Shown here piece after piece: positions 2,037-41,931 of a stretch of 49,278 nt of DNA. Made by a program: the position numbers and the translations under genes. Position 1 is the stretch's first letter. Every line of letters begins with the position of its first letter. The stretch lies in IMG/VR virus record IMGVR_UViG_3300045988_165978; one strand, 5' to 3'. Under the pieces are notes generated by a model. That model had not been told where the DNA came from. It worked only from the letters and a program-made list of their open reading frames with translations, and made no database searches. This DNA is from a virus.

Positions 2037-2454
2037 TATCTTTCTCCCCCTTCAAGTATCTTTCCAAAGATTCTACTTTCTGCTGCAGGGTTTCAACAGT
2101 ATCCGCATCAGCATATCTTTTCGGAACATCCGGATTTTCTTTTGAAAGTCGATATGTCTGAACAATGGGCAGACCATTCATATTTATTGCTTTTGCATAA
2201 ATACAATTATCTGCAGGACAGATAAAATACGTAAATGTTCCGTCTAAATCTATTTGAGCGGCTTTTACTTCATCAAAGCTCCCTACTGTCCGCCCTTTTA
2301 ATACTGCAGGCATGGCTGGTGTGTTATACTGTGACTGCATCATATTTTGCTGCTGATAGTTTGGCATCGGCTGCATTGGTTGAGGATATTGCACCTGTCG
2401 TTGCTGTTGGCTGGGAAACATATTAACTCCCGGTACATAGAGATTATTAAACAT
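1951..2454 (-). CDS. hypothetical Pro/Gln-rich protein (167 aa)
   Basis: ORF preceded on the minus strand by GGGGGAG ribosome-binding site and a TATATAATA -10 like element (about 2490-2500). Confidence 0.55.
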   Translation of the reverse strand: MFNNLYVPGVNMFPSQQQRQVQYPQPMQPMPNYQQQNMMQSQYNTPAMPAVLKGRTVGSFDEVKAAQIDLDGTFTYFICPADNCIYAKAINMNGLPIVQTYRLSKENPDVPKRYADADTVETLQQKVESLERYLKGEKDNESNAINTDDRANTKQSEPNGNLPANVW

Positions 2455-2574
2455 CTTTTACTCCCCCGTTCTCTTTGATTTACTGTATTATATATAAATT
2501 TTTCTCTCTAAAAAGGACTATAAAAGGACATAAAACAGACAATAAAAAACAGCCCGTTTGGGCTGTCATAAACA

Positions 2575-2742
2575 AAAGCAGTTATCAAGTAATCCTTGAT
2601 AACTGCTTAAATTTTTTATTAATGCCTAACGCCAGGCTTGCAAAATCCATGTCCATATGGTTTTGATTTGATTGAGGAATTCTCACGAACTTGTCTGAGC
2701 GATATATTTAAACTTCGAGGGTCTACTCCACCGGCGTTAGGC
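2575..2742 (-). ncRNA. candidate structured ncRNA (unit 0): minus-strand promoter, 16-bp closing stem ATTAATGCCTAACGCC/GGCGTTAGGCATTAAT, tandem terminators
   Basis: Minus-strand -35 TTGAAA (2778-2773), 18-nt spacer, -10 TAAAAT (2754-2749). Perfect 16-nt inverted repeat at 2616-2631 and 2726-2741. Two hairpin+T-run terminators at 2560-2620. Confidence 0.45.
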
Positions 2743-2833
2743 ATTAATATTTTAGCACATCAATATTTTTATTTTCAATAAACTATGAAAAAAATCTTTA
2801 ACTCAAACACAAGATTTTCTATAAAATTTTCTC

Positions 2834-2990
2834 CTTTTTTTAATTGACTTTTTCTATAAACCAATAGTATAATATCCACCGGGACGACGGTATTGCTGCG
2901 CCGTACTCCTACAATTTTATGTGAGCGTAAGAGAAGTGAACCCCTTTGGTTAGATAATTCTAACGAAAGGGGTTTACTTCTTGAAGAATT
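2834..2990 (+). ncRNA. plus-strand unit U1: consensus promoter (TTGACT-18-TATAAT, 2834-2863) -> about 100-nt transcript -> hairpin CCCCTTTGGTTAGATAATTCTAACGAAAGGGG + T-rich tail
   Basis: Promoter motifs read directly. Hairpin with palindromic loop at 2940-2975. No ORF. Confidence 0.45.
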
Positions 2991-3120
2991 TGACTTTTTC
3001 AATGAACCAATAGTATAATAACTATAAAGAGATAGTCGGTATTGGATCACCGGCTCTCCCCGTAATTAAAAAATTTGACGGAAGGCCGTGTAACCGCAGG
3101 TTATGCGGTTTTTCTCATTT
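2990..3120 (+). ncRNA. plus-strand unit U2: consensus promoter (TTGACT-18-TATAAT, 2990-3019) -> about 90-nt transcript -> terminator ACCGCAGGTTATGCGGTTTTTCTCATTTT
   Basis: Near-identical promoter to U1 (ttgactttttc.a..aaccaatagtataat). GC hairpin + U-run at about 3088-3118. Shares CGGTATTG...CCG...CTCC with U1. Confidence 0.45.
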
Positions 3121-3326
3121 TATTTTCGAAATGAGAGAATGACTACTATAAGAGTTGCAAAACCTATCATTAAAGATAAGGTTTCATAAACAGTCATAGC
3201 ATCACCCCCTACTCTTTTGGAGTAGGAAAACCGATTACCGACTATCTCGAAAATTATTATAGCATAACTAAACATATTTTTAAATAACAGGGAATATACC
3301 CCGGTTATTTCTTTATGATAAGCAAA

Positions 3327-3534
3327 AAGCCCTCTCTGCTTAACAGAAGGGCCTTTTGTATAACGGATGGTGAAAGGATGAAGTACCTAACGCCAGCCAG
3401 CAAAAGAAAACGAGTCGGAGTTGGAGGTTATTGCATGTTGTCAACCGAACAAGAGAAACTATATCTGCTTTCCTAAAAAAGTCAAACTGTTTCTTTAACT
3501 AAACCTGCACCTTTACTAAACTGTCGTTAGGTTC
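3327..3534 (-). ncRNA. candidate structured ncRNA (unit 1): minus-strand promoter TTGAAA-17-TAATAT (3569-3541), closing stem CCUAACGACAG/CUGGCGUUAGG, terminator at 3327-3362
   Basis: Promoter lies in the conserved 70-bp repeat 3533-3605. 5' and 3' arms (3521-3531 and 3386-3398) are complementary 10/11. Hairpin + T-run on the minus strand at 3327-3362. Confidence 0.45.
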
Positions 3535-3653
3535 AAATATATATTAGCACCACTTTTTTAGGTTTTCAATATCCTAAAGCAATACTATTTTTTTATAAAC
3601 TAAAATGAATATCAAAACTAACGACTTTATTTATAACACTCTTATCAATACCA

Positions 3654-3828
3654 AAATCCCTCGTTGCATACGCAACGAGGGATTTTGGTACTTTTGGGCA
3701 AGGATTAAGATTTTGTGCCTAACGTCAGCCTGTAAGGTAAATGAGTGGAGAGTTAGATTTGGGATAACACTATTGCCCGTTGTGGTAGGACATCAATCAT
3801 ACACCTTTACTGAACTGACGCTAGATAC
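3654..3828 (-). ncRNA. candidate structured ncRNA (unit 2): minus-strand promoter TTGAAA-17-TAATAT (3863-3835), closing stem CUAGCGUCAG/CUGACGUUAGG, terminator at 3654-3690
   Basis: Paralogous to unit 1; the 70-bp repeat at 3828-3900 is near-identical to 3533-3605. Arms at 3815-3824 and 3718-3728 pair with one G-U. Perfect 13-bp hairpin AATCCCTCGTTGC-ATA-GCAACGAGGGATT + T-run. Confidence 0.45.
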
Positions 3829-3897
3829 AAATATATATTAGCACCACTTTTTTAGGTTTTCAATATTCTAAAGCAATATTATTTTTTCATAAATTAA

Positions 3898-3935
3898 AGG
3901 AAGCCACTAAAATCAGTGACTTCCTTTTTCATATA
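3898..3935. terminator. bidirectional terminator hairpin (AGGAAGCCACT...AGTGACTTCCT + T-run)
   Basis: Stem with one mismatch, T-runs on both strands. Just downstream of the minus-strand gene 3954..4220. Confidence 0.5.
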
Positions 3936-3953
3936 ATAAGATCAGCAACCTTA

Positions 3954-5542: not shown

Positions 5543-5807
5543 TACGGTCTATAAGCCTACGGCTTAATGCCAGCAGGCTTCCCAGAAGTGGAGCTCCGCA
5601 TATAACCAGTATTATATCCTTTAGCTCCGGCAGCCCTGCCTTATTCAGCCAGAATGTGAAATATACCCAGGTTCCAATGTATAGCAATATCGTTCCGAAA
5701 AGCAGATACAGCGCTGCATAGATTGGCCACATATTACCGCTGGATATCGCTATATCCGGCAATTTTGACATACCTTTTTCCAGCCAGCCTTTTATTTTTA
5801 CGAACAC
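5469..5807 (-). CDS. holin-like membrane protein (112 aa, about 3 TM helices, charged C-terminus)
   Basis: Three hydrophobic segments followed by a highly charged C-terminal tail. Immediately upstream of the endolysin candidate. Confidence 0.55.
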   Translation of the reverse strand: MFVKIKGWLEKGMSKLPDIAISSGNMWPIYAALYLLFGTILLYIGTWVYFTFWLNKAGLPELKDIILVICGAPLLGSLLALSRRLIDRNGNGISDEDEKQPERRPHNDFNGR

Positions 5808-6160
5808 TTATTGCACCCCCTGTTTTCCACGTCCGGAGGATTCTGAGGTAACTGCAGGACCTTGTTGTAAATTTCGGTAATTGCGCCATTACCGCCAAGA
5901 GCTTTATAACTCCTATACATGTCCATTATGTTTTCCATATTGTAGATAGGTATAAATCTTTTCTCCTCTGATTTATGATAGATACTTATGATCTCAGTTC
6001 GGAGCAAACTTCTTATAGCATCGTCTCGTGCTACTTCCTGCTTGTTCCTTTCCTCGATATCTGCCCGGTATTTAGCATACATTTTCCATAAAATACCCAG
6101 TAATCCGCTCTGCAGCAGCAGGCTTACTGTTGTACCTATATGAGTTTGTATATACTCCAA
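5798..6160 (-). CDS. membrane protein with N-terminal TM (120 aa), possible second holin/antiholin
   Basis: N-terminal helix TTVSLLLQSGLLGILW, then a charged region. First gene after a terminator/promoter gap. Confidence 0.45.
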   Translation of the reverse strand: MEYIQTHIGTTVSLLLQSGLLGILWKMYAKYRADIEERNKQEVARDDAIRSLLRTEIISIYHKSEEKRFIPIYNMENIMDMYRSYKALGGNGAITEIYNKVLQLPQNPPDVENRGCNKCS

Positions 6161-6185: not shown

Positions 6186-6285
6186 TTGACTTTTGTAAAC
6201 TTTGCGGTACAATGTTGGCGAACTACGAAAGCTAAATTTCTTCCCCTACACTAATACAATGTAGGGGTTATTTTTATGCTCCCAA
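6186..6285 (+). ncRNA. plus-strand unit U3: promoter TTGACT-17-TACAAT (6186-6214) -> about 60-nt transcript -> terminator CCCCTACACTAATACAATGTAGGGG + TTATTTTT
   Basis: Motifs read directly. The hairpin also serves as terminator for the minus-strand gene 6290..6730. Confidence 0.4.
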
Positions 6286-29929: not shown

Positions 29930-30202
29930 TTATTCCAACGGAGAAATTTTTATAAACTCTTGTGTATCCCAAATTTTTTGCAGTTCTTCTTTGTGGAGTT
30001 CCCCCCATTCTTTTATTAATTCCATAGCTTTAGGCGGTAAGTCTCCTTCAATTTGCTTTAGTGTTTTTATTTCAATTTCGCCTGTATATTCTCCGTAAAT
30101 TGCGTGAAAGTGTGGCGGGTTGTGTTCTTTTCTCTGAAAATACATTTTTATATAAATCCCATAAAAATATGATAATGTAGGCATTTTTATTCTCCTCTGC
30201 AT
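29930..30202 (-). CDS. DUF4160 domain protein (90 aa)
   Basis: MPTLSYFYGIYIKMYF..EHNPPHFHAIYGEY is the hallmark of DUF4160. Confidence 0.7.
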   Translation of the reverse strand: MQRRIKMPTLSYFYGIYIKMYFQRKEHNPPHFHAIYGEYTGEIEIKTLKQIEGDLPPKAMELIKEWGELHKEELQKIWDTQEFIKISPLE

Positions 30203-30336
30203 TTTTTAACATTTTCTTTTTCCGCTGGTATATGTTCGCTAATAAGTTCCCTGAATAACTCTTTTGTTGATCCTGTAAAACGTTTGCCCTCTCCGTTTTC
30301 TAGTTCTTTTATAGCTTCTATAGTTTCTTGGTTCAT
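30187..30336 (-). CDS. RelB/DinJ-like antitoxin-type small protein (49 aa)
   Basis: Not in the ORF track (<60 aa). MNQETIEAIKELENGEGKRF.GSTKELFRELI resembles the RelB/DinJ-family motif. AAAGAGGGA ribosome-binding site. Confidence 0.45.
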   Translation of the reverse strand: MNQETIEAIKELENGEGKRFTGSTKELFRELISEHIPAEKENVKKCRGE

Positions 30337-30340
30337 TTTA

Positions 30341-30580
30341 TTATCCCTCTTTGTTAATTTTTGGAAAGGCTATCACAGCCTTTCCTTGCTCATCAACAAA
30401 CGCCAATCTATAGCCGCAAGCATCTGCTATTTTTATCAAATCTATCCCGCTGAAACTATCTCTTGAATATTTGTTACTAAGTGCTTGTGGACTTATGTTT
30501 AAAGCTTCTGCTAAAATTTTTCTGTCTGCATTTTTTATATTTGCCGCTGCTTTTACTATATTTCCTATCATTTTTTTCAT
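30341..30580 (-). CDS. HTH DNA-binding protein (79 aa), first gene of the TA-like operon, divergent from ardA
   Basis: LAEALNISPQALSNK helix-turn-helix. Confidence 0.55.
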   Translation of the reverse strand: MKKMIGNIVKAAANIKNADRKILAEALNISPQALSNKYSRDSFSGIDLIKIADACGYRLAFVDEQGKAVIAFPKINKEG

Positions 30581-30652
30581 CTCCTTTCATATCTTTATTA
30601 TACCGTTTTTGATTATTTTTGCAAGAAAAAAAAGAAAAAAATAATCAAATTG

Positions 30653-30681
30653 CTATTGACACCGTTAATCAATTAGGTTAT
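30653..30681 (+). promoter_or_regulatory. consensus sigma70-type promoter TTGACA-17-TATAAT driving the ardA operon
   Basis: ttgacaccgttaatcaattaggttataat read directly. AAGGAG ribosome-binding site before ATG 30731. Confidence 0.7.
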
Positions 30682-30730
30682 AATAAACACATAAACGAAA
30701 TATAAAACACATTTTAAGGAGATATTTTAA

Positions 30731-31234
30731 ATGTTAAAAATCTATATTGCAAACTTAGGAAAATACAACGAGGGAGAATTGGTGGGTAAATGGGTTGAAT
30801 TGCCCTGCGAAGACTTAGACGAAGTTTTAAAAGAAATTGAAGTTGTAGACGGTACAGCTTACGAAGAATACGCCATACACGATTATGAAAGCGATATTGA
30901 AGGTTTAAATATTGGTGAGTATGATAATATATTCTCACTTAATGAGATAGCCGAAAAATTAAACGAGTTATCAGACTATGATAAAAATTGGTTAGAGGCT
31001 TATTTGGATGCCTCGGGCGAAGACTTGTTAACAGCTTTAGAACAATTCGAGGATAATTCTTATTTCTACAAAGATATGACCTTAGAAGACGTTGCAGAAG
31101 AATTAGTTTCAGAAGGCTGTTTTGGTTATATTCCAGATTCTATAGCAATTTATATTGATTATGCTGCCATTGCAAGAGATTTAGAATGTGATTCTTATTT
31201 TGAAACAAAACAAGGTGTTATTTATCTTTGTTAG
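30731..31234 (+). CDS. ardA: antirestriction protein ArdA (167 aa)
   Basis: N-terminus MLKIYIANLGKYNEGELVGKWVELPC...DYESDIEGLNIGEYDNIFSLNEIAEKLNEL matches the ArdA family closely. Highly acidic. Confidence 0.85.
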   Translation: MLKIYIANLGKYNEGELVGKWVELPCEDLDEVLKEIEVVDGTAYEEYAIHDYESDIEGLNIGEYDNIFSLNEIAEKLNELSDYDKNWLEAYLDASGEDLLTALEQFEDNSYFYKDMTLEDVAEELVSEGCFGYIPDSIAIYIDYAAIARDLECDSYFETKQGVIYLC

Positions 31235-31315
31235 TCGAAACGCTTGCAGTCTGCAAGCGTCAGCCGTGGGATAGCCTCCCGGCTCTGATGATGACAGGCT
31301 AGAAAGGAGATAAAA

Positions 31316-31579
31316 ATGAAAAAACAAACATTTCTTATTTGTTTTGAAAATATTGACGGTATAGCCGTCAATTTTGAGCGCTGGACATTCAAAAGTGTTA
31401 AGACTTGTATAAAAAAAACTATTGAACTTTACAAGTCTTATCCTGATATTTACGCTGATACTTTGAATAAAACTGTAAAAGTTATTGCTTATTCTACTCC
31501 TAACGGTTATACCCGACAACAGGCAGTCTGGACAGCAACCATTGACGAATTTAAAATGCTTATAAACAATTTTTATTGA
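31316..31579 (+). CDS. hypothetical protein (87 aa)
   Basis: AAAGGAG ribosome-binding site. In operon with ardA. Confidence 0.55.
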   Translation: MKKQTFLICFENIDGIAVNFERWTFKSVKTCIKKTIELYKSYPDIYADTLNKTVKVIAYSTPNGYTRQQAVWTATIDEFKMLINNFY

Positions 31580-31636
31580 CATTTATATTTTAATGACGTT
31601 TAATTGACTTAAAGAAAATGCTTTGGAGGTAAAACC

Positions 31637-31921
31637 ATGAAGAAAAACCGCTTTAATTTTGATAAAAAAATTCTTGAAATGCTTGATAATTTAGACCTTA
31701 TCCCGAAAACTCAAACAGACCCTTTGCCGGGTGTAGGGGGCAGGCTTTTTATTATAACTAAGTCACAGCAAAATTATTTTAAACAAATTTGTGATACTTT
31801 AGCCCTAGTACCAGAAGAAGAAGTAAATACCTATTCAAAAAAAGAGAAATTATTTTGGTCTTGGATCTGGAACAATGCCGAAAGAGTTCTTTCTAATTGC
31901 GTTGTTTATGAACGAAAGTAA
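31637..31921 (+). CDS. hypothetical protein (94 aa)
   Basis: GGAGG ribosome-binding site. In operon with ardA. Confidence 0.55.
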   Translation: MKKNRFNFDKKILEMLDNLDLIPKTQTDPLPGVGGRLFIITKSQQNYFKQICDTLALVPEEEVNTYSKKEKLFWSWIWNNAERVLSNCVVYERK

Positions 31922-32021
31922 GCATACTATAAAAAGCGCTGAGTAAAACCAGCGTTTTTTATTTTTATCGTTGTACGTATTTTATACGTGTGTTATGATG
32001 TATTTGAGATCTAAGCTAAGG

Positions 32022-32323
32022 AGCGTTATATATGCATAAAAAACAAGACTGTTATATTTACCCCGCCGTTATAGAAAAAATGCTAATAATTACAGCGTAT
32101 TCTTACCCGATCTACCCGGCTGCGTCGCTTCTGGTAATAACTTCACGAAGCAATATTATACGCAAAAGAAGCGTTAGGATTCCATTTGTGGGGAATGGAG
32201 CAGGACAATGAATTTATTCCGTCTCCTAGCTCCCCTGAAAATATCCAGCTAGGTAAAAACGATACTCTTTGCTATCTTGATATAAATATGTTCTCTATTC
32301 GTTCTAAAATGAAAAACTTGTAA
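32022..32323 (+). pseudogene. hicB: hicB-family antitoxin pseudogene (UPF0150-like) with two frameshifts
   Basis: AAGGAG ribosome-binding site + ATG. Frame 1 gives MHKKQDCYIYPAVIEK. Frame 3 gives NNYSVFLPDLPGCVASGNNFTKQYYTQKKR*. Frame 2 gives EALGFHLWGMEQDNEFIPSPSSPENIQLGKNDTLCYLDINM... Both shifts fall at A-runs (gaaaaaatg; caaaag). No hicA nearby. Confidence 0.55.
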
Positions 32324-32352
32324 GCACGGTTAGACCGTGCTTTTTATTTTTA
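32323..32352. terminator. terminator hairpin AGCACGGT-TAGA-CCGTGCT + TTTTTATTTTTAT
   Basis: Read directly. Confidence 0.6.
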
Positions 32353-32356
32353 TCGC

Positions 32357-32516
32357 CAAAAGTCCGTGCAATCAAAATCGCGTGCAACCAAAAGTCCGTG
32401 CAACGATAAAAGTCCATGCAACCAAAACCGTATGCAATGCCAAAAGTCCGTGCAACCAAAATCATATACAACACCAAAAGTCTGTGCAACCAAAATCACA
32501 TGTAACTATGAAAGTC
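32357..32516. repeat. iteron array: about 10 contiguous 16-17-bp repeats (consensus CAAAAGTCCGTGCAAC / CAAAATCRCRTGCAAC), candidate replication origin
   Basis: Direct repeats with helical-turn periodicity and no spacers. Located immediately downstream of the ArpU-like/RusA/Rep genes. Confidence 0.7.
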
Positions 32517-32913
32517 CTAATCTATCAGCCAGCATTTTACAGATCAAGTCGAGATCTTTATAGAATTTTGCACGACTAACATTTAGACGTGCAATTATCG
32601 TTTTATCCTGCAAGCTTGGTCTATTCAAAAATTTCTCGTTAAATAACAGTAATAGATCCTCGTTCAACGCCGCACGTAAATCATCTATAGCTGCTATTGC
32701 TCTTTCTAAATATTCCTGTCGTAAAAATAACCTTTGCAGTTCCCGGTTTGTTAATTCTGCTTTTCCTGAACACCTAAGATTTTTTATTTGTTCTTGAATA
32801 CGAATTATTTCCATACAGTTTTCTTTATAGTCAGCCAATTCCTGTAGGACAAATTTTTTAGTGCTGTGTTTCATTATCATCCAGCTCCTTTTTATATGCA
32901 ACGACAACTTCAA
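32506..32913 (-). CDS. ArpU-family / sigma-70 region-4-like phage transcriptional regulator (135 aa)
   Basis: C-terminus LNVSRAKFYKDLDLICKMLADRLGL is a sigma-r4-type HTH. Length and architecture resemble the ArpU family. Confidence 0.5.
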   Translation of the reverse strand: MKLSLHIKRSWMIMKHSTKKFVLQELADYKENCMEIIRIQEQIKNLRCSGKAELTNRELQRLFLRQEYLERAIAAIDDLRAALNEDLLLLFNEKFLNRPSLQDKTIIARLNVSRAKFYKDLDLICKMLADRLGLS

Positions 32914-33250
32914 TACGAGGACGTTTTTTGTCTAAGGAGAAATCCATATCACGAATAAGGACGTTTCTATCATTTTCATAGAGGATGTTTTCAAGTGCAT
33001 CAGGCAGGAGCTTATGGAGATTTCCCATATCGTGAGGACGATTATCGGGCCAAAAAGCCCATAGCAGGATAACTATTTTTTCATCTTTTGCAGGATAAAC
33101 CCACCCCTGTTTCCTTTTTGCCTGAGTTGCTTCATATCCAGCAATAAGTTTCCAGTTTTTCGCTGCCTCTGTAAGTCTGCGGCCTTTTCTCGGTACATTT
33201 ACATAACAATGGTTAACACTGGGCGGGATGTCTAATATTATTTTTAACAT
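32858..33250 (-). CDS. rusA: Holliday junction resolvase RusA-like (130 aa)
   Basis: N-terminus PPSVNHCYV.VPRKGRR and C-terminus HDMGNLHKLLPDALENILYENDRNVL match the RusA pattern (D..N..K..DAL...DD). Confidence 0.7.
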   Translation of the reverse strand: MLKIILDIPPSVNHCYVNVPRKGRRLTEAAKNWKLIAGYEATQAKRKQGWVYPAKDEKIVILLWAFWPDNRPHDMGNLHKLLPDALENILYENDRNVLIRDMDFSLDKKRPRIEVVVAYKKELDDNETQH

Positions 33251-33998
33251 ACCTCTTTTTCTCCTTCTGTTTTTTATCAGGTATCTTGATCATTCTGTAA
33301 TACTGATATGGATAGCCAGTGATCTCGCTTACTCCATATTCAATGCTATCAGGAATGATCATATAGCCTTTGGGCGCTTTCGGATACTCCCGCCAGCTGT
33401 CAGCTTTGACTATATTGGTCTCTACTTCCGGTTCTTTTAAGTTTCTCGATGAACACCATCTTTTTTTGAATACAGCTTTTTCAGGATCATTATATGTTTT
33501 TCTAGTTTGTTTTATGAGATAATCAGCAAGTTTTATATAGTCTCCCGAATCATCTAAAACTCTAAGACCTACTCTGCCATGTCCCCATATTTTATTTATT
33601 TCTTCTGGTAGAACTCCACCATTGACTACCATATGAAAATGCATGGATACTTTCCCATACTCAGCAACCGCTATATACTTTAATTCTTTCTCTAACTTTT
33701 TATAGTGCCTTCTCATTCTATCTAAAAACCTTTTCAGGTCATTTCTTGCATCTTCTGGATTAAGTGCTCTTTCTTCCGGTCTATAGGTTAGGATCAAATG
33801 ATAATCACCTGCTGTGAAATTAGCATTGATCTTTCGACGTAAATTTTTAGCAGCGTTACGTTCATTTACTTTTTTCATATTTTCCGGAGTACGGTTTATA
33901 TTAGCCGACCTGGTTATCTTTTTACTGTTAAATTTAGTCGTGTGATATTTTTCTACATCTACTGTCAATCCAGCAAAATATTTCTTTTGTAAATACAT
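33213..33998 (-). CDS. HUH-type rolling-circle replication initiator (Rep), about 261 aa from ATG 33998 (the ORF track extends to 34121)
   Basis: HUH motif MHFHMVVNG. Tyr motif GDYIKLADYLIKQ. The track's first 41 codons look like read-through of non-coding DNA. Confidence 0.55.
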   Translation of the reverse strand: MYLQKKYFAGLTVDVEKYHTTKFNSKKITRSANINRTPENMKKVNERNAAKNLRRKINANFTAGDYHLILTYRPEERALNPEDARNDLKRFLDRMRRHYKKLEKELKYIAVAEYGKVSMHFHMVVNGGVLPEEINKIWGHGRVGLRVLDDSGDYIKLADYLIKQTRKTYNDPEKAVFKKRWCSSRNLKEPEVETNIVKADSWREYPKAPKGYMIIPDSIEYGVSEITGYPYQYYRMIKIPDKKQKEKKRYVKNNIRHPAQC

Positions 33999-34141
33999 GA
34001 TAAAATCCGCCTTAAAATAATAGATTAAATCAAGTCTAAAGGGACCTGGTCCCACAATCAAAAAAACGTATATATAATGGAAGGAATTTTTCAAAGCATT
34101 TAGGCGCATGTCAAAAGACATACGCCATTTACTTATTTTAC

Positions 34142-34477
34142 TTATTGTTTATATCTTGATACATACGCATATAAAGCATTTATACTTACTCCTATTTCTT
34201 TAGCAATTCTATACCTGGTATAACCAGCTTCAAACATCTCGAATATTTGTTCGTGGTATTGCTCCCATTGAATGGCTTTTTTCGACGCACATTTATCTGT
34301 AGGTTTAAAATCAGGGATTTTACTCTTATCTTTAATTTCATTTATATTGGAAGTATTTTCTAATTCGACATAATGCCGACCCCTGATACATTCTTCCAGT
34401 CCAATAAAAGGACAAAAAATAATATTGTCATACTTATGTATCCGGTAGCATTTTAAACAATTTACTGCTTCTTTCAT
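34142..34477 (-). CDS. DNA-binding protein with N-terminal Cys cluster and C-terminal HTH (111 aa)
   Basis: C-terminus AGYTRYRIAKEIGVSINALYAYVSRYK is HTH-like. Confidence 0.5.
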   Translation of the reverse strand: MKEAVNCLKCYRIHKYDNIIFCPFIGLEECIRGRHYVELENTSNINEIKDKSKIPDFKPTDKCASKKAIQWEQYHEQIFEMFEAGYTRYRIAKEIGVSINALYAYVSRYKQ

Positions 34478-34479
34478 TA

Positions 34480-34692
34480 TTAATCACCGTCCGCAGCACT
34501 AATATCAAACATATCGCCTAAATTTCTGACTACTCCCGCCAAAACCATACACATATTTCTCAGAGCTTCTGGCGAAAAATCATAAATTGCTCTTTTTTGT
34601 TCAAATTCCGTCATATCAGTAAAGCAAATGTTTTCGTACTTTCCATTCCGCTTTACTCTGAAATAAATACCGCAAAGTTCACGTTTTTTCAT
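34480..34692 (-). CDS. hypothetical protein (70 aa)
   Basis: ORF in an operon of tightly packed minus-strand genes. Confidence 0.45.
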   Translation of the reverse strand: MKKRELCGIYFRVKRNGKYENICFTDMTEFEQKRAIYDFSPEALRNMCMVLAGVVRNLGDMFDISAADGD

Positions 34693-34746
34693 TCTTCACT
34701 CACTAAATCCTTAATGTTTTTCTGATCCCTCATAAGTCCTATAGCA

Positions 34747-35094
34747 TTAGTTTAAAATTTGTTCCCTTTTTTCTAATGCTTCTTTCGGAATTTCCTTAAT
34801 CTCTATGCCTTCTTTTTTTGCAACTTCTATCAATATCGGTAATAAAAGCATAGTTAAATTTAGATCTGTTCGTTTAGCCATATGGGTTAAATAGCTAATA
34901 ATCAAAACAAAAACCTTTGCAATGTGATCTTGAATGTTCTCATTATCTGTTTTTCCTTCCTCGTCCACCATTGACGTACATATAAAACTATCAGTAATAA
35001 CGATTACGCTTTCGTTTGTTGATTTCATTTTTTCTAAAGATTTAATACATTCAGTTAACGTTTCTACCCGCTGTTTTAGTTTTGTTTTTTTCAT
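34747..35094 (-). CDS. hypothetical protein (115 aa)
   Basis: ORF preceded by a ribosome-binding site. Confidence 0.5.
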   Translation of the reverse strand: MKKTKLKQRVETLTECIKSLEKMKSTNESVIVITDSFICTSMVDEEGKTDNENIQDHIAKVFVLIISYLTHMAKRTDLNLTMLLLPILIEVAKKEGIEIKEIPKEALEKREQILN

Positions 35095-35109
35095 TTTTCT
35101 TAACCTTTC

Positions 35110-35253
35110 TCAATCTTCTACGATACAAATTTTATTCGTATATTCGTCAAACACTACATCACTTGCCCAAAAACCACGCCCATCACCGGAACAAGTGATA
35201 ACTGCATCGTCCGGATATTCTTCTATCAACTCTATCAGTTCTTTCTTTGTCAT
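35110..35253 (-). CDS. hypothetical acidic small protein (47 aa)
   Basis: Not in the ORF track (<60 aa). ATG with AACGAGGT ribosome-binding site. Fills the gap between neighbouring genes. Confidence 0.3.
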   Translation of the reverse strand: MTKKELIELIEEYPDDAVITCSGDGRGFWASDVVFDEYTNKICIVED

Positions 35254-35510
35254 TTATTCATACCTCGTTTATAACGCAAAACAGCAGCTTTTATATTTCT
35301 GTTGCAACGTGTACATTCATATACCGTTGATTTTTCGTAATAATTCATAGAGTCGGCATAAGCTCCCGCCTCAAATTTACCGTTTTCGTCATAATGTTCT
35401 GTATAGTGGCCGTGCACAGGAATTACTTCCCTCCAGCCCGTTATATTCTTGCAGTGAGGGCAAATAAAACTTTCTTTCATTTTTTCACCTCGTTCCAATC
35501 TTTCGCACAC
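35250..35510 (-). CDS. zinc-ribbon protein (86 aa; CPHC...CTRC)
   Basis: Two CxxC pairs. Confidence 0.5.
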   Translation of the reverse strand: MCERLERGEKMKESFICPHCKNITGWREVIPVHGHYTEHYDENGKFEAGAYADSMNYYEKSTVYECTRCNRNIKAAVLRYKRGMNK

Positions 35511-35830
35511 TCGTCACATAGTACCTCTACTTCGTCTAAAACTGTTGCTGTACCATTACGAACAACTTTCCCGCAGTTTGTGCAATTCAGCTCCCAGCCA
35601 TTACTTAAAAATTCTTTTGCTGGTATTATTTTGCTGGCTCCATATTTATCAGCCCACGGAACACGATAAACCCGCATTTCTGTAAATTCTCTATCATGTT
35701 CGGAAGCAAGTAACGCTTTAGCTTTTCCCGGTGTAGCCGCCCAAACTACATGACTTTCGTCGTAATCTTCGTCATCCCATCCATAAGCTTTTAATTTCAT
35801 TTTTCTACACCGTCCATAATAGCCCCACAT
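35477..35830 (-). CDS. hypothetical protein with C-terminal CxxC pairs (117 aa)
   Basis: CTNCG...CDEC. Confidence 0.5.
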   Translation of the reverse strand: MWGYYGRCRKMKLKAYGWDDEDYDESHVVWAATPGKAKALLASEHDREFTEMRVYRVPWADKYGASKIIPAKEFLSNGWELNCTNCGKVVRNGTATVLDEVEVLCDECAKDWNEVKK

Positions 35831-36069
35831 TCAGGGCAATATAGTGTTTCAACTTCTTGTGGATTTTTACCCAAGCTGCATATACTTACATCATCGAATT
35901 CTAAATCTATCCAATGCCCCTGCTTACGTTCTTCTACTGTAGGGGCTTTGTCTATTAAACCTTGAAAAACGTTTAACGCATGAGCAAAACGAAAATCAGC
36001 CTTTGCATAAGCGTTTAACACTTCATTCATTAGTTCCATGCTTAAAGCGTCTTTATCTATTAATTTCAT
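35797..36069 (-). CDS. hypothetical zinc-ribbon protein (90 aa)
   Basis: C-terminus CPECG. Confidence 0.45.
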   Translation of the reverse strand: MKLIDKDALSMELMNEVLNAYAKADFRFAHALNVFQGLIDKAPTVEERKQGHWIDLEFDDVSICSLGKNPQEVETLYCPECGAIMDGVEK

Positions 36070-36076
36070 AAGCTAT

Positions 36077-36532
36077 TCACCACCCAGTACTGCCAAAACC
36101 GCCAGTGCCTCTTTTTGTTTCAGAAAGTTCTGCAACCGGTACTAGCGTTGTATCTTCGTTACGCTCGATCAGCATTTGAGCAATACGCTCACCTGCTTTA
36201 ATACTGTGATAGCCTTTTTTTACAACGATCTCTTTTTCATCAACATACATTTTAGCTTCATACATAACTTTTACTTCGCCTCTGTAATCGCTGTCGATTA
36301 TCCCGCAAGAATTCGGCTGGCGTAATAATGTTTTCAAGCCTGTACTACTGCGTGGAAAGATTTTGGCATGATACCCCGGTGGAATCTCAATAGCAAATCC
36401 CAACCCAATTAGTACAGGTTCTGTACCTACAGTTATATCTTCTCTTGCGTAGCAATCATAACCGGCTGCACCGATCGTTCCTTTTGTCGGCATTTTACCG
36501 CCAGTCAATAATTTTATCTTAATTTCCATCAT
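36077..36532 (-). CDS. dut: dUTP diphosphatase (151 aa)
   Basis: Motifs AAGYD, RSS, GIIDSDYRGE, and the C-terminus GGFGSTG. Confidence 0.85.
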   Translation of the reverse strand: MMEIKIKLLTGGKMPTKGTIGAAGYDCYAREDITVGTEPVLIGLGFAIEIPPGYHAKIFPRSSTGLKTLLRQPNSCGIIDSDYRGEVKVMYEAKMYVDEKEIVVKKGYHSIKAGERIAQMLIERNEDTTLVPVAELSETKRGTGGFGSTGW

Positions 36533-36861
36533 TACTCACATTCCTTCCATTTCAACCTTTGCCCACAATGATAACAGCATCTTGTTTTTGCGTAATTTGC
36601 CATTGCGTTAAAACCAACAATTCCACTACAATTAGGGCATATTATGTCGTCACATTCATTAGGTCCAACTTGCATAGGCTCTGTCGGAGTATCTTTTTTT
36701 CTATATCTCGCTACCTTACCGCCAAGTTGGCTATTTTTTCGGCGCAGCTGTTTGATCTCCATCAAAGCTTGTAAAAATACTAACTTTAATACCCGTATAT
36801 ATTGATCATCCGGTTCTTTTTCGATTAACGCCATCATATTTTTTATATTTATTGGTCTCAC
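36532..36861 (-). CDS. hypothetical protein with C-terminal zinc ribbon (109 aa)
   Basis: CPNC...CYHCG. Confidence 0.5.
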   Translation of the reverse strand: MRPINIKNMMALIEKEPDDQYIRVLKLVFLQALMEIKQLRRKNSQLGGKVARYRKKDTPTEPMQVGPNECDDIICPNCSGIVGFNAMANYAKTRCCYHCGQRLKWKECE

Positions 36862-36880
36862 TATTTACAACTCCTTATAT

Positions 36881-37261
36881 TTAAAATGGGATTTCTTCAT
36901 CAAAAGGCGCTCCTGTATATTCGTTACCGCCAGGTCCGCCGAAGTCTTCTTTCTTTTCAATGAATTCAATATGGCTGCCGATAACTTCTGTTACCCAACG
37001 TTTAGAACCGTCATTTGCTTCGAACGTTCTAACTTGTAACCGCCCTTCGACAAGCAACCGTTGTCCTTTATGAACATAATTACCAACAGTTTCTGCTACT
37101 TTCCCCCATAAAACTACGGGCACAAAGTCTGCCTGCTGTTCTCCATCTTTCGTAGTTGGTCTATTGACCGCCAAAGTAAAAGTCGTTACGCATTTTCCTG
37201 TCTGGGTATATTTAGTATTGCAATCTTTAGTCAATCTTCCTAATAAAATTACCTTATTCAT
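36881..37261 (-). CDS. ssb: single-stranded DNA-binding protein (126 aa)
   Basis: OB-fold pattern (VILLGRLTKD...RLQ.R.F...DG). Acidic tail ending DEEIPF. Confidence 0.85.
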   Translation of the reverse strand: MNKVILLGRLTKDCNTKYTQTGKCVTTFTLAVNRPTTKDGEQQADFVPVVLWGKVAETVGNYVHKGQRLLVEGRLQVRTFEANDGSKRWVTEVIGSHIEFIEKKEDFGGPGGNEYTGAPFDEEIPF

Positions 37262-37263
37262 AG

Positions 37264-38178
37264 TTAACCTCTCCTATGATCATATTCTTCAAACATTTTT
37301 ATCGTCCTAAATATCTGCTTATTGTTTACCCAACGCTGCAAATATTTTGTTTTTTCAGGAGCATTCAATTTATCAAAAATCATAATGTACGGATCATAGC
37401 CTATGTCTCTCAATGTATATACCCGATACAAATCTTCTTCATGCGTGCTGTTAAAATTAGTTAATACGTAAACACTAAGGTTTCTGCGACTACCTTTCCA
37501 CGCAGCTCTGTATTCCTTTAATTTTTCTAGTGTTCCCATATCATTAGGATCGTCCCACGCAAAATGTATCATACTGTACTTAACCTTATTTATAGCACAG
37601 GCTTTTTCATCCGTCATAAGCCTAATATCCAAACCCTGAGTAAAATCTACATAGGCTCTACTCTCAGCCAGCTGTCCAAGTAAATTTTCCCAATCAGGAC
37701 AAGCCAGCAAATTAGGATCAAGCAGCTTTATGTGCTTCTGACCACGCCAAAACTGCGATAAATCAGCAACTTTATACGCCTGTACACCTTCCTTTTGACC
37801 TACTATGCAGAATGGACACTGACGAGGACAACCTCTAGTTAAGTAACCATATGCTTTATTTTTGATAGCATATAAATCATAGTCAGGATAGCTACATTCA
37901 ATATTTTGTGGCAACTTCCCCATTAAGTCGTAACCAGTTCCACCTTTAACGATTTCGTCAGCTTGATACGCTTGGATATCATCCGGCGTAAAGGAAAAAA
38001 CTTTTGCCATATACACAATATCATAGCGCTCTAAACTTCCAGCCCAATGAACAATATCACCGTGTTTTTTATGCCATGCTGATATTTTCATCAAAGCTAA
38101 ATTAGGAAAGTTATGTCCATCAACATCAACAAGTCCTATTTTCATGTTTATCTCCTCTATAGTTTTATATAGGCCCAT
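37264..38178 (-). CDS. radical SAM domain protein (304 aa)
   Basis: CPRQCPFC = Cx3Cx2C cluster. Function within the phage DNA-metabolism module unknown. Confidence 0.6.
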   Translation of the reverse strand: MGLYKTIEEINMKIGLVDVDGHNFPNLALMKISAWHKKHGDIVHWAGSLERYDIVYMAKVFSFTPDDIQAYQADEIVKGGTGYDLMGKLPQNIECSYPDYDLYAIKNKAYGYLTRGCPRQCPFCIVGQKEGVQAYKVADLSQFWRGQKHIKLLDPNLLACPDWENLLGQLAESRAYVDFTQGLDIRLMTDEKACAINKVKYSMIHFAWDDPNDMGTLEKLKEYRAAWKGSRRNLSVYVLTNFNSTHEEDLYRVYTLRDIGYDPYIMIFDKLNAPEKTKYLQRWVNNKQIFRTIKMFEEYDHRRG

Positions 38179-38384
38179 TTACGAATATCTTTTAGATCAA
38201 ATTCGCGTCCATAGTCAGACCAACTACGGAAAGTTAATGTACCATCATCTGAAACTAATTGGGCTATTTCATAAAAATATTTATCTTCTTTAGACTGAAT
38301 TAGTACCAATGCATCAAGAACAGGCAGACAATTTTTTGTTTTCTGCCATCCAACAATTTTATTCGTAGGGATCTTCATCCTCAA
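38157..38384 (-). CDS. hypothetical protein (75 aa)
   Basis: ORF between the methyltransferase and radical-SAM genes. Confidence 0.45.
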   Translation of the reverse strand: MRMKIPTNKIVGWQKTKNCLPVLDALVLIQSKEDKYFYEIAQLVSDDGTLTFRSWSDYGREFDLKDIRKWAYIKL

Positions 38385-39414
38385 TCTCCTTTAAAATTAC
38401 ACCTATTGCCAAAATAACATTTACTGTAACAGAATTTCCTGCTTGTTGGTAAAGTCTACTGTTACTTATTCCTGCCGCCAAAGCTCTATCAAAGGCCCAA
38501 TCAGGAAATCCCTGTAACCGCCAGCACTCCCTCGGTGTAAGCTTCCTAATCCTGCACCGAATTTTCCTGCGTGTTTTTTGTATACAGAGAATTCCATTGC
38601 AATTATCTTCTGAAAGCCCTTTATAATATCGAGCTGATAAGCAAGATGCTGTTTGAGCACCTACATTTTTTATTTTCATATTGTTTACAGGCGTACCAGA
38701 CTTTTTAGAAATTTTTACAGGAACTAAAAAAAGACCTGTCTTTGCTCCTAATCCCCCGCCTTCTGCTTTCAAAGTCCTAGCAAGTCCTCTGCTATCATAT
38801 ATCCGAAAAGCATCTGCCACACCTTTGGTTAATTCTTGCTGTTTGCAAGGATTTTCGCCGTTTGTTGGTCTGATAGGAAATACTTTTCGTCTACTTCCTT
38901 CTCCAAGATGTCCAATAATGAACACCCTTTCCCTGTTTTGCGGAATTCCAAAGTCTTTACTGTTGAGCACTTGCCATTCGCACTCGTACCCGACTTCTCC
39001 CAGCGAACAGAGCAATCTGGCAAAGTCAAAACCTCGTCCAATAGACAATAGATTTTTAACATTTTCAATGAGCAGCCATTCGGGTCTATCTTCTTTATTT
39101 CTCCCTTCAAGCAACCGTATAATTTCCCAGAAAAGCCCTGAACGTCCCCCCCGAATTCCCTTTTGTTTTCCTGCAATGGAGATGTCTTGGCAGGGAAATC
39201 CGAAACACCAAAGAGGGACGGTTGGTATATCGTATGGTTTAACTGTTCTGATATCATATGCTTCCCATTCTCCTTCTGTCTCATATATTGCTTTATAAGC
39301 CGTTCTAGCGAACTTATCGAATTCACAAAAACCAGCACATTTATGTCCGGCCATTTCCAACCCTAGACGTATTCCCCCTATGCCGGAAAACAGGTCAATA
39401 AATTTCACCGCCAC
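38359..39414 (-). CDS. dcm: DNA (cytosine-5)-methyltransferase (351 aa)
   Basis: Motif I DLFSGIGG. Motif IV GFPCQDIS. ENV motif. C-terminal QAGNSV. Confidence 0.9.
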   Translation of the reverse strand: MAVKFIDLFSGIGGIRLGLEMAGHKCAGFCEFDKFARTAYKAIYETEGEWEAYDIRTVKPYDIPTVPLWCFGFPCQDISIAGKQKGIRGGRSGLFWEIIRLLEGRNKEDRPEWLLIENVKNLLSIGRGFDFARLLCSLGEVGYECEWQVLNSKDFGIPQNRERVFIIGHLGEGSRRKVFPIRPTNGENPCKQQELTKGVADAFRIYDSRGLARTLKAEGGGLGAKTGLFLVPVKISKKSGTPVNNMKIKNVGAQTASCLSARYYKGLSEDNCNGILCIQKTRRKIRCRIRKLTPRECWRLQGFPDWAFDRALAAGISNSRLYQQAGNSVTVNVILAIGVILKEIEDEDPYE

Positions 39415-39442
39415 TCCTCCCTACTTATGATCAACTTGAATT

Positions 39443-39655
39443 TTATCTTTCCGGCCTAGCCTTGATTCTTTTAAGCCCTTCAAAAAATTCCAGCTTAGTA
39501 TCATCATCAACAGAATTAAGAATAGAATAGAAAGCACTTTGTGCATTCTTTGCCATATCACTATCTGGTCCCCAAACTGTAGAAGCTACTGTTGCAAGAT
39601 TCCAAGCGTCAAAGATTTTTTCAAAAACTTTACTGTCCATCATTGTCGGAATCAT
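39443..39655 (-). CDS. hypothetical protein (70 aa)
   Basis: ORF. Confidence 0.45.
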   Translation of the reverse strand: MIPTMMDSKVFEKIFDAWNLATVASTVWGPDSDMAKNAQSAFYSILNSVDDDTKLEFFEGLKRIKARPER

Positions 39656-40112
39656 CAGTCGGCTTACGATTTTTAGAAGCCCACGGATTAGGCGGTGGAG
39701 GTAGCGCCGCCGTTCCTTCCTCTAATTGTTTAGTGTCTTCAACGATTATTACCTCTGCATCCACTTCTTCGCCCTTAAAACTGTTGTAATATCCTTGTTC
39801 TACTGGTCTCTCAAGCTCCATTAATATCTCAACAGGTACATTAATTTTCTTGATTGACAAAATAACGTACTGATCTGAGATAATAGTGTCTTTCTTTAAT
39901 TCTGGCCACAGACTTTCTTCATTATTACTGCCAAAAACATTTGTTATTTTTACTACGCATTGGCGCCCGGTATATTCACCGTCAAAATATTCCTGCAGTA
40001 ATAAAATATCATCTTCCTGATAGTTACGATCATTCTTCCTCAATTCAAATCTCTTTTTCCCCTTCTCTACCAATGGGAAAAATTCTGGTAATATTTTTAA
40101 TTTATGGATCAT
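39630..40112 (-). CDS. ASCH-like / DUF3850 domain protein (160 aa)
   Basis: N-terminus MIHKLKILPEFFPLVEKGKKRFELRKNDRNYQ..D.LLL.EY matches DUF3850 (ASCH-like). Confidence 0.55.
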   Translation of the reverse strand: MIHKLKILPEFFPLVEKGKKRFELRKNDRNYQEDDILLLQEYFDGEYTGRQCVVKITNVFGSNNEESLWPELKKDTIISDQYVILSIKKINVPVEILMELERPVEQGYYNSFKGEEVDAEVIIVEDTKQLEEGTAALPPPPNPWASKNRKPTDDSDNDGQ

Positions 40113-40330
40113 CTTTTCCGCCCTCCACTTCTTAACCCTATCCTGGCTTCTTTTACTAAAGGATCAGTGCTGTACATTAAGCAGTTTGGACAAATTAGAT
40201 ATTCCCTGTGCCCAAAAGGATGTATATAACAATATCCATTTTCTGTATGCTTTTCACATATGCTGCAGTATCCTTTAGTCTTTGATTCTTTTTCTTGGGT
40301 ATCACGATGCATACTATCGCTTCCTTTCAC
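40109..40330 (-). CDS. zinc-finger small protein (73 aa)
   Basis: CSICE...CPNC. Confidence 0.45.
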   Translation of the reverse strand: MKGSDSMHRDTQEKESKTKGYCSICEKHTENGYCYIHPFGHREYLICPNCLMYSTDPLVKEARIGLRSGGRKR

Positions 40331-40553
40331 TTGCCTTTTTCATACAGGAATAGGAACAGTAAAATTCCCTTCTCGGCCGCCCTGATTTATAGCCGGACCG
40401 CCTTTGATAAACATAATTAGTTAAATCAGTACCCCACGGCAGGCATTTCTTTTTCCCACATTCGGCACACGTAATTTCCGGTAGCAGTGTATTAAGATTC
40501 AAATAGTGATTGTTACAGATATTTCTAACTACTCTTTTTTTACTTTTGCCCAT
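40314..40553 (-). CDS. zinc-finger small protein (79 aa)
   Basis: CAECG...CSYSC. Confidence 0.45.
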   Translation of the reverse strand: MGKSKKRVVRNICNNHYLNLNTLLPEITCAECGKKKCLPWGTDLTNYVYQRRSGYKSGRPRREFYCSYSCMKKASERKR

Positions 40554-40554
40554 A

Positions 40555-41305: not shown

Positions 41306-41322
41306 CCTTTCTGATTTTATGG

Positions 41323-41455: not shown

Positions 41456-41532
41456 TATATATGGAATTGTTTTTATAGGATCTTTTATAAATAGCATTGG
41501 AGAAATACCAATCAAAATTTTTAAAATCCATA

Positions 41533-41839: not shown

Positions 41840-41931
41840 TTGACCAAAGCTCCCTCATTATGTTATTATTTGTATGCAGAATAAATAACTTATTCATAAT
41901 GATGTTTCGATATTGGATTGGAGGTTTATTT

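Follow-up and report, generated by a model that had tools for sequence, protein, structure and literature searches.

Background

The 49,278-nucleotide (nt) DNA of the IMG/VR virus record IMGVR_UViG_3300045988_165978 (the window, in the following always meant at its full length) raises the question of what purpose is served by strong promoters that run, within about 100 nt, straight into a terminator. Two such units, U1 and U2, are located in tandem on the plus strand between positions 2834 and 3120. An initial annotation had combined them with four units elsewhere in the window (U3–U6) into a family of six and considered small RNA (sRNA) genes or deliberate transcriptional insulators or decoys rather than chance. 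The present analysis indicates that a type I toxin-antitoxin module (Hol_Tox/TxpA-BsrG) probably makes up the focal locus, U2 being the antisense antitoxin, U1 an orphan and U3–U6 separate elements. U2 is assigned as the antitoxin RNA because a convergent Hol_Tox gene with a promoter of its own shares a two-way terminator with it.

Type I toxin-antitoxin modules are well known on prophages of Bacillus, Staphylococcus, Enterococcus and Clostridioides. Annotations of them are scarce, since an open reading frame (ORF) of 25 aa and an RNA of ~95 nt are invisible to standard pipelines. The window represents a temperate siphovirus-type genome with long operons on the minus strand, encoding terminase, portal and tail proteins. 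A close cultured relative was not found: blastn (distant mode) of positions 2500–3500 against 50,697 phage records yielded 0 matches, and megablast of positions 30000–49278 against phage records matched only 2 %. The exact terminase protein of the window is, however, indexed in 5,624 blocks of public assemblies, contigs >1 Mb included, for which reason the phage is regarded as a very common human-gut prophage.

Promoters, transcripts and folds of U1 and U2

The following elements were assigned to the two units:
2844–2985, plus strand: U1 unit from promoter to end; predicted RNA 2880–2985, a candidate orphan antitoxin-like sRNA
2844–2873, plus strand: U1 promoter, TTGACT-18-TATAAT, 11/12 consensus, 27/30 identical to the U2 promoter
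2881–2910, plus strand: U1 5' hairpin, GGGA..ACGGU / GCCGU..UCCU
between the 5' and terminal hairpins, plus strand: U1 CU-rich stretch, ACUCCUAC
2931–2982, plus strand: U1 terminal hairpin of 23 bp with the weak U-tail TACTTCTT
2990–3122, plus strand: U2 unit from promoter to end; predicted antitoxin sRNA 3027–3122 of ~95 nt
2990–3019, plus strand: U2 (antitoxin) promoter, TTGACT-18-TATAAT, 11/12 consensus
3029–3058, plus strand: U2 5' hairpin, followed by a linker and then by the terminator, the U-run of which lies over the toxin stop codon
3080–3114, both strands: bidirectional terminator of U2 and toxin mRNA, a 16-bp hairpin then T-run; AAUUUUUU comes after the stem on the minus strand

The near-identical consensus promoters ascribed to U1 and U2 were confirmed, and the 30-nt pattern common to both has no third site in the window and occurred in 0 of 100 shuffles. 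Overall, promoters with at least 11/12 consensus positions number six on the plus strand and one on the minus strand, compared to 0.73 ± 0.84 (maximum 3 in 200) in shuffled sequences. The shared internal motif CGGTATTG-N5-CCG-N2/3-CTCC was detected exactly twice in the window (2888 and 3037), as had been described, except that the spacer given earlier as a single nucleotide is really 2–3 nt long. Folding of the predicted RNAs, evaluated against shuffles, yielded z = −7.0 for U1 and z = −4.2 for U2. A GC-rich hairpin with U-run had been attributed to both units; this applies to U2, whereas the U-tail of U1 is weak and its hairpin fails the simple terminator rule applied in a strict promoter-plus-terminator scan. 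Neither unit contains an ORF with a ribosome-binding site (RBS), in agreement with the initial annotation, which nevertheless missed a 25-aa toxin ORF on the opposite strand (3120–3197).

The U1/U2 locus is also present in human-gut metagenome and IMG/VR contigs of close relatives. Scanning metagenomes for the promoter pattern recovered only near-identical phages and unrelated promoters, two of them upstream of tRNA genes and one upstream of a protein gene. Scanning genome contigs yielded two matches, both in unrelated metagenome-assembled genomes; one was checked and had nothing in common beyond the pattern, and both were taken as chance.

A convergent Hol_Tox gene on the minus strand

Three elements were identified opposite to and downstream of U2:
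3120–3197, minus strand: toxin gene encoding MTVYETLSLMIGFATLIVVILSFRK, 25 aa plus stop; Pfam Hol_Tox (PF16935), 37.7 bits versus a cut-off of 23.3
3198–3249, minus strand: leader of the toxin mRNA, starting GAGAUAGUCGGUA, identical to the start of U2
3256–3284, minus strand: toxin promoter, TTTAAA-17-TATAAT with TG extension, 10/12 consensus

The toxin ORF, which is convergent with U2 and abuts its terminator, is the only Hol_Tox-like ORF in the window. The type I toxins TxpA, BsrG, BsrE and BsrH belong to PF16935. The encoded product, MTVYETLSLMIGFATLIVVILSFRK, is a small (<60 aa) hydrophobic peptide (mean hydropathy 1.39) with a transmembrane helix and a charged C-terminus, and its gene is preceded by a Shine-Dalgarno (SD) sequence 5–13 nt upstream. 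In an alignment with BsrG and other phage Hol_Tox peptides, residues M1, L7, M10, F13 and L16 are invariant, and only a synonymous change was found in the toxin of close relatives. The leader is predicted to form an anti-SD/SD hairpin (CCUACUC/GAGUAGG) just before GGGGGUGA and the AUG; analogues of this RBS-sequestering hairpin, likewise predicted, are present in the leaders of loci L046, L052, L033, L078 and L048.

On the RNA level, positions 3117–3271 of the minus strand resemble Rfam rli28 (RF01492; 39.8 bits, gathering score 45, E = 0.0033) and BsrG (RF01412; 21.2 bits, gathering score 55, E = 0.013). Both of these so-called sRNAs are toxin mRNAs, and in Listeria, rli28 and RatA are convergent, with a BsrH-like ORF overlapping the former (PMC9484302). 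The relationship of the toxin locus to BsrG and BsrH is thus backed by the Rfam scores as well as the peptide alignment (and PMC9484302).

Since a U-run follows the hairpin at 3080–3114 on either strand, an overlap of ~55 nt, stop codon included, results between the predicted U2 RNA (3027 to ~3122) and the predicted toxin mRNA (3249 to ~3067). U2 therefore represents an antisense RNA gene with a promoter of its own and complementarity to the toxin mRNA, the transcript ends being predicted. The following course of events is proposed. A toxin mRNA of ~180 nt would be transcribed from the extended −10 promoter on the minus strand and would encode the 25-aa Hol_Tox/TxpA-BsrG peptide, its RBS being partly locked in the leader hairpin. 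The stronger plus-strand promoter would produce the convergent U2 of ~95 nt, which would end at the same two-way terminator and thus have ~55 nt in perfect complementarity to the toxin mRNA at its 3' end. By analogy to txpA/RatA and bsrG/SR4, pairing at the 3' ends would expose the toxin mRNA to cleavage by RNase III and to decay, with a refolding that blocks toxin translation as a further possible consequence. Toxin would then appear only upon loss of the unstable sRNA, and the 5' hairpin of U2 would serve as a second specificity element. Mechanisms based on 3' overlap, and location on prophages, are described for RatA, SR4, SR5 and SR6 (PMC6562991), and the TxpA homologue EF3263 has an antisense RNA of ~110 nt (PMC2887945).

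The U2 family in IMG/VR

The expectation that the 5' motif recurs in related phages was borne out for U2. Searching IMG/VR with the signature TATAAT-N6-10-AGAGATAGT-N12-26-GCTCTC detected U2-type elements in 90 stretches, with 22 distinct bodies. Across all loci examined, a convergent 25-aa Hol_Tox-type ORF accompanies 98 of 102 copies, and the other four run out of sequence; the pairing with a toxin thus holds for 98 of the 98 loci with enough sequence. The distance from the toxin stop codon to the −10 element of the antitoxin is 103–120 nt for antitoxins with one module and 163–165 nt for those with two. A separate scan of IMG/VR with Hol_Tox N-termini retrieved L033/L037, in which the entire module is present in diverged form. 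Identity of the six toxin variants to the toxin of the window amounts to 44–76 %.

A covariance model (R1) constructed from the 5' domains of eight antitoxins from outside the window matched U2 at 3027–3066 with 41.3 bits (E = 1.8e-10); on the rest of the window, U3–U6 included, it found nothing, with U1 lacking a match at E ≤ 10. The combination of a 5' domain of the form AGAGAUAGU-X-loop-X'-GCUCUC with a terminator shared with a Hol_Tox gene was accordingly found in U2 and not in U1. In an alignment of ten sequences, 96 % of the cells of the 5' hairpin are paired, versus 35–59 % when the partners are slid against each other. Four pairs are changed on both sides, and the covariation score was reached by 0 of 500 shuffles. 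Because the frequent U·G pairs would be A·C mismatches on the other strand, the hairpin is selected in the antitoxin (plus) sense. The few single-nucleotide polymorphisms (SNPs) of U2 in close relatives are confined to the linker or a predicted bulge. U2 is hence a member of a widespread, structured and previously uncatalogued family of antitoxin RNAs which has no Rfam model.

Shared 5' ends of antitoxin and toxin RNAs

In every module, the 5' domain of the antitoxin reads AGAGAUAGU-X-loop-X'-GCUCUC(Y)C and the cognate toxin mRNA starts with GAGAUAGU-X, where X is the same: CGGUA in the window, CAGUG in L046, UUGAUA in L052, UYGACGG in L033, UGAUG in L078 and UUAAC in L048/L049. In these six diverged modules both RNAs open with an identical 12–14 nt; scored over the first 14 nt, cognate antitoxin/toxin pairs share 12–13 positions and non-cognate pairs 7–12. 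In the window, the 5' arm of the U2 hairpin and nt 1–13 of the toxin mRNA are identical. The promoters further upstream are different, and the resemblance sets in at the predicted start of transcription, which argues for a reason at the level of RNA.

Two such reasons may be envisaged. According to the first, the 3' arm of the antitoxin hairpin would pair in trans with the extreme 5' end of the toxin mRNA, establishing a second contact; the predicted energy of this pairing is −15.7 kcal/mol for U2. According to the second, a toxin transcript reading through its terminator would end in the complement of the antitoxin hairpin and fold back onto its own 5' end, with U2 competing for this interaction. 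The complement of the antitoxin hairpin, together with the U-run that arises from the conserved A-run before the antitoxin start, resembles a second terminator on the toxin strand, and in a toxin transcript reaching this second hairpin the first 13 nt pair perfectly with the last 13 nt in six of six modules. Identity is kept even at U·G positions of the antitoxin hairpin, which slightly favours fold-back, or else gene conversion, over pairing in trans. In other Hol_Tox subfamilies (L025, L035, L045), a same-sense copy of the toxin leader is found within the antitoxin gene.

Further candidate pairings were tried. Pairing in trans of the CU-rich tail with the SD region was not adopted as the main mechanism, being weak in the window and persuasive for L033 alone (10 bp). 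Pairing of the leader 5' end with its own anti-SD or a coding segment was not conserved across modules and was dropped. In RNAduplex predictions against the 5' part of the toxin mRNA, U4 was an outlier (z = −3.4) lacking a contiguous helix, and was regarded as an artefact that arises from long gapped duplexes.

U1 as a probable orphan antitoxin-type RNA

U1 and U2 have in common their promoters, the CGGUAUUG stretch and the plan of the hairpin. The outer helix is GGGA/UCCU in U1 and GAGA/UCUC in U2, a compensatory change from A-U to G-C, and the inner helix of U1 is ACGGU/GCCGU. U1 is set apart by an unrelated terminator of its own and by lacking both the A-run and a convergent toxin. Among close relatives, U1 is present in L018, L020, L021 and L024 and cleanly absent from L001, L002 and L019, with the junction inside the repeated promoter. 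It is therefore considered a 146-bp insertion/deletion polymorphism between promoter copies. SNPs within U1 are located before the hairpin and in the terminator loop; searching IMG/VR for the U1 terminator gave 0 matches.

Antitoxin modules without a toxin are common among the relatives. Two-module antitoxins occur in 35 loci, the first module matching a toxin found only in other phages, and an orphan antitoxin unit is present ahead of a complete module in six loci. The antitoxin gene of L048/L049 (e.g., L049, minus strand from 590) carries two 5' hairpin modules in series, and in L058 an orphan antitoxin unit, which has two modules and a terminator to itself, lies upstream of a complete toxin-antitoxin module; the toxins matched by these extra modules occur only in other phages. 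Considering this abundance and the lack of a partner toxin for U1, the latter is probably an orphan antitoxin-type sRNA and a diverged paralogue of U2. It could be the relic of a lost module, or could be aimed at a toxin encoded elsewhere, e.g., by a competing phage.

Beside the U1 hairpin, positions 2974–2988 of the minus strand read F-F-K-K-stop, the way toxin genes of the family end before their shared terminators. This may be a relic of a deleted toxin gene; the observation is weak and post hoc, the stretch overlaps the U2 promoter, and it could be chance.

U3–U6 as separate units

The four further units, together with the cro-like and cI-like genes, are located as follows:
6186–6277, plus strand: U3; promoter 6186–6213 (10/12), RNA of ~60 nt, hairpin 6243–6267 and T-run
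41323–41455, plus strand: U4; promoter 41323–41350 (11/12, extended −10), RNA of ~100 nt, terminator 41425–41446
41533–41662, plus strand: U5; promoter 41533–41560 (11/12, extended −10), RNA of ~95 nt, terminator 41626–41651
44709–44813, plus strand: U6; promoter 44709–44738 (11/12), RNA of ~70 nt, 5' UUCG hairpin, long terminator hairpin
44828–45064, minus strand: cro-like gene
45162–45551, plus strand: cI-like gene

All four exist as promoter, hairpin and T-run as initially reported, with the correction that the −35 element of U6 begins at 44709 rather than 44721. The reported orientation holds as well, all six units lying between minus-strand genes and pointing the other way. The fold z-scores of U3–U6 range from −3.7 to −6.0. 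The notion of a family of six, however, was not upheld: the only parts in common are the promoter and 5' domain of U1/U2 and the promoter of U4/U5, and neither blastn (against all loci and the window) nor R1 revealed further homology of U3–U6 to U1/U2 or to each other. Since U3–U6 are unrelated to U1/U2, the resemblance is one of architecture only. A credible Rfam match was not obtained for U3–U6, nor was a small toxin ORF with SD and hydrophobic character found convergent with any of them.

U3 is antisense and located in the gap just upstream of gene 5798–6160, which precedes a gene for a YkuD-domain protein; the neighbourhood may represent the lysis region. Its stem carries a compensatory C-G to T-A change in L002, and U3 is absent from L021. 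U4 and U5 lie between a helix-turn-helix (HTH) gene and an early gene of 188 aa; U4 is identical in L003/L004 and the module is absent from L006. The 3' end of U5 abuts the stop codon of the HTH gene (41660–41839, minus strand). The −35 regions of U4 and U5 (41323–41337 and 41533–41547) are embedded in the near-perfect palindrome TTGAAAATTTTTCAA, which may be an operator for an HTH protein, e.g., that of the adjacent 59-aa XRE-type gene 41660–41839; clear further copies are lacking in the window (7 loose matches versus 2.7 expected). U6 is antisense, is flanked by the cro-like gene and the early gene following it, and is 96 % identical in L006. Mosaic breakpoints were located inside the U3 promoter (6197, versus L021), directly upstream of the 188-aa gene (41305, versus L006; removing U4/U5 and the HTH gene) and exactly after the U6 T-run (44813, versus L006).

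The proposal of sRNA genes rather than chance is supported for U1/U2 and is plausible for U3–U6, which by their position could be separate cis-antisense sRNAs against intergenic stretches of the minus-strand operons, distinct from the U2 family. A function of U3–U6 is backed to a limited degree by their folds, the compensatory change in the U3 stem, the conservation of U6 as far as the breakpoint at its T-run and the palindrome at U4 and U5.

Evaluation of alternative explanations

Several results weigh against a type I module with U2 as its antitoxin and U1 as an orphan. Transcript ends, toxicity and repression are all predictions. The scores of the toxin mRNA for rli28 and BsrG are both under the gathering score, and U2 has no match (E ≤ 10) to RatA (RF01776) or another antitoxin family of Rfam on either strand of 2400–3600; RatA was not found at gathering score in the whole window, and scans by E-value over every unit region left all plus-strand units without a credible match. 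With regard to the 5' ends, the cognate pair is clearly best in the matrix of cognate and non-cognate energies for only two of the six modules, unrestricted RNAduplex predictions of the U1 or U2 5' domain against the toxin leader were no better than shuffles, and fold-back would require read-through of a terminator that looks efficient in the window. As to U1, it is not detected by R1, its pairing with the toxin 5' end is weak (−7.5 versus −15.7 kcal/mol for U2), and a search of IMG/VR for a cognate toxin leader starting with GGGACGACGGT yielded three matches, all inside coding sequence. The identical 5' ends might also lack any role at the level of RNA, being an inverted repeat in DNA kept alike by gene conversion or stemming from a recent inverted duplication. 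Such an origin would explain why identity extends to the U·G wobble positions of the antitoxin hairpin, at which C would equally be compatible with pairing in trans. It is nonetheless unlikely, as the similarity begins only at the predicted transcription start, with different promoters upstream, and the identity persists in six modules with diverged toxins, loops and terminators.

The interpretation of all six units as one family of insulators or decoys, the strong promoters and immediate terminators of which block or soak up transcription between operons, agrees with their opposite orientation in gaps between minus-strand genes, with the strong enrichment of near-consensus promoters on the plus strand and with the coincidence of mosaic breakpoints with U3, U4/U5 and U6. 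It is given very little credence, since the six units have no common sequence, insulation does not need a conserved 5' hairpin, and the strict coupling of U2 to a toxin (98 of the 98 informative loci), along with the compensatory changes in the hairpin, points to a base-pairing RNA, not a mere terminator; U2 is explained by the convergent Hol_Tox gene. Alternatively, U1 and U2 could be prophage ‘moron’ sRNAs which act in trans on mRNAs of the host or other phages, the adjacent toxin being incidental. The succession of 5' hairpin, CU-rich single strand and terminator typifies Firmicute sRNAs acting in trans on ribosome-binding sites, and prophage-encoded sRNAs are common (bioRxiv 10.64898/2026.05.13.724894); conservation of the convergent toxin and shared terminator in every relative with sequence, and the module-specific identity of antitoxin and toxin 5' ends, render this highly improbable. 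U1 might furthermore be a second working antitoxin for the same toxin, providing redundancy or dosage and acting in trans via the CU-rich ACUCCUAC on the toxin RBS. SprA1AS, which acts through a non-overlapping domain, provides a model. Between CUCCUAC of U1 and GUAGGGG in the SD region of the toxin, 7 bp (one of them G·U) can form, the CGGUAUUG element is common to U1, U2 and the toxin leader, and the weak terminator of U1 could yield U1-U2 read-through RNAs resembling the two-module antitoxins of relatives. Near-identical phages, however, keep the toxin without U1, U1 has no 3' overlap with the toxin mRNA, its duplex with the 5' part of the latter is no better than shuffles and the pairing at the 5' end is weak, so that a second antitoxin for this toxin appears decidedly unlikely.

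Returning to U2 as antitoxin and U1 as an orphan, a more far-reaching proposal is made tentatively and is, on balance, doubtful: gut phages might carry arrays of RNA antitoxin ‘specificity modules’, each 5' hairpin being keyed to about the first 13 nt of one toxin mRNA. Some of these (U1, the first module of L048/L049, the L058 orphan) would match non-self toxins and serve as anti-addiction or cross-immunity devices against competing prophages, and the shared 5' ends would form a hok-like 5'-3' lock which the antitoxin opens or competes with.

Comparison with known systems

The locus is similar to txpA/RatA, bsrH/as-bsrH and Listeria rli28/RatA, which likewise combine a short Hol_Tox-type toxin with a convergent sRNA of ~100 nt over the mRNA 3' end on a mobile element (PMC9484302, PMC6562991). 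It differs from the txpA/RatA group by an antitoxin without RatA match, a toxin of only 25 aa and a 5' hairpin arm that copies the start of the toxin mRNA. With bsrG/SR4 and bsrE/SR5 of B. subtilis prophages it shares the BsrG-like N-terminus MTVYE.L..M, the 3'-3' overlap and the sequestered RBS. SR4 promotes decay and alters the leader fold (PMC3834814, PMC6562991). Compared to bsrG/SR4, the overlap is shorter (~55 versus 123 nt), the antitoxin sequences are unrelated and the BsrG model scores only 21 bits (gathering score 55). A precedent for one antitoxin with two target-recognition regions is yonT-yoyJ/SR6, to which the two-module antitoxins of L048/L049 and the tandem of U1 and U2 may be compared; both toxins of SR6 are adjacent, whereas the window and its relatives possess extra modules without a toxin in the same phage.

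In par (fst RNA I/RNA II, Enterococcus pAD1) and sprA1/SprA1AS (S. aureus), too, convergent genes have a bidirectional terminator in common, and an additional contact, of the kind proposed for U2, is situated outside the 3' overlap near the 5' region of the toxin. The 5' repeats of par are direct in DNA, making the RNAs complementary, while those of the window are inverted, so that both RNAs have the same sequence, and the toxins are unrelated. Provided that read-through occurs, pairing of toxin nt 1–13 with the 3' end would resemble the fold-back inhibition (fbi) of hok/Sok, i.e. the lock of full-length hok mRNA. Unlike in hok/Sok, such a lock presumes read-through at the terminator, the overlap with the antitoxin is at the 3' and not the 5' end, and a mok-like leader ORF is absent. 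U3–U6, in turn, are reminiscent of OOP of phage lambda and sar of P22, short constitutive antisense RNAs with their own promoter and terminator inside an early or late operon, and the position of U6 just downstream of the cro-like gene resembles that of lambda OOP. U3–U6 differ from OOP and sar in sequence and in covering intergenic stretches rather than coding 3' ends.

Two features deserve attention: the 5' sequence common to the toxin RNA and the antitoxin RNA, and the occurrence of orphan antitoxin modules in arrays. Recognition of the U2 family would explain many ‘empty’ gaps in gut-phage genomes, a promoter running straight into a terminator being a cue to seek a tiny hydrophobic ORF on the opposite strand. 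The natural variants on offer, with six specificities as well as two-module and orphan antitoxins, lend themselves to studying how RNA antitoxins discriminate between toxins, and the orphans allow asking whether phages deploy them against each other.

Further small units in the window

Two additional units were identified on the minus strand of the gap that harbours U1, U2 and the toxin gene:
2548–2778, minus strand: promoter 2778–2749 (10/12 with TG), then an RNA of ~130 nt; two terminators, 2608–2576 and 2567–2548
3318–3485, minus strand: promoter 3485–3458 (10/12), then an RNA of ~130 nt; terminator ~3352–3320

The RNA of the former is closed by a perfect long-range stem of 17 bp (2617–2633 / 2733–2749; fold z = −4.5); the unit lacks an Rfam match and is 96–100 % conserved in close relatives. 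The RNA of the latter contains CUGGCGUUAGG, a repeat of an 11-mer in the former unit at 2625–2635 (CCTAACGCCAG on the plus strand), as well as a CCUCCAACUCC stretch. Together with U1, U2 and the toxin gene, these two units make the gap at 2450–3950 a cluster of at least five small transcription units.

A plus-strand island within the minus-strand phage genome is formed by unit 30656–31234, in which an anti-restriction gene (ArdA; PF07275, 121 bits) is under the control of the sole perfect (12/12) plus-strand promoter (30656–30684). Directly behind this gene, a type II hammerhead ribozyme was detected (31233–31303, plus strand; Rfam RF02276, 46.4 bits versus a gathering score of 37). It starts at the ArdA stop codon and ends 12 nt before the SD of the plus-strand ORF 31316–31579, and therefore looks like an intercistronic self-cleaving site. 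A ‘moron’-like unit (41840–42179, plus strand), divergent from the HTH gene, comprises a promoter at 41840–41869 (10/12, TG), an ORF of 66 aa (41935–42135) with a GGAGG SD, and a terminator at 42152–42179. In the early region, a hydrophobic ORF of 53 aa (42315–42473, minus strand; MKGLYLAAIDIIVDGL...) with a strong SD (AGGAGG) adjoins none of the six units; its predicted product is a small membrane protein.

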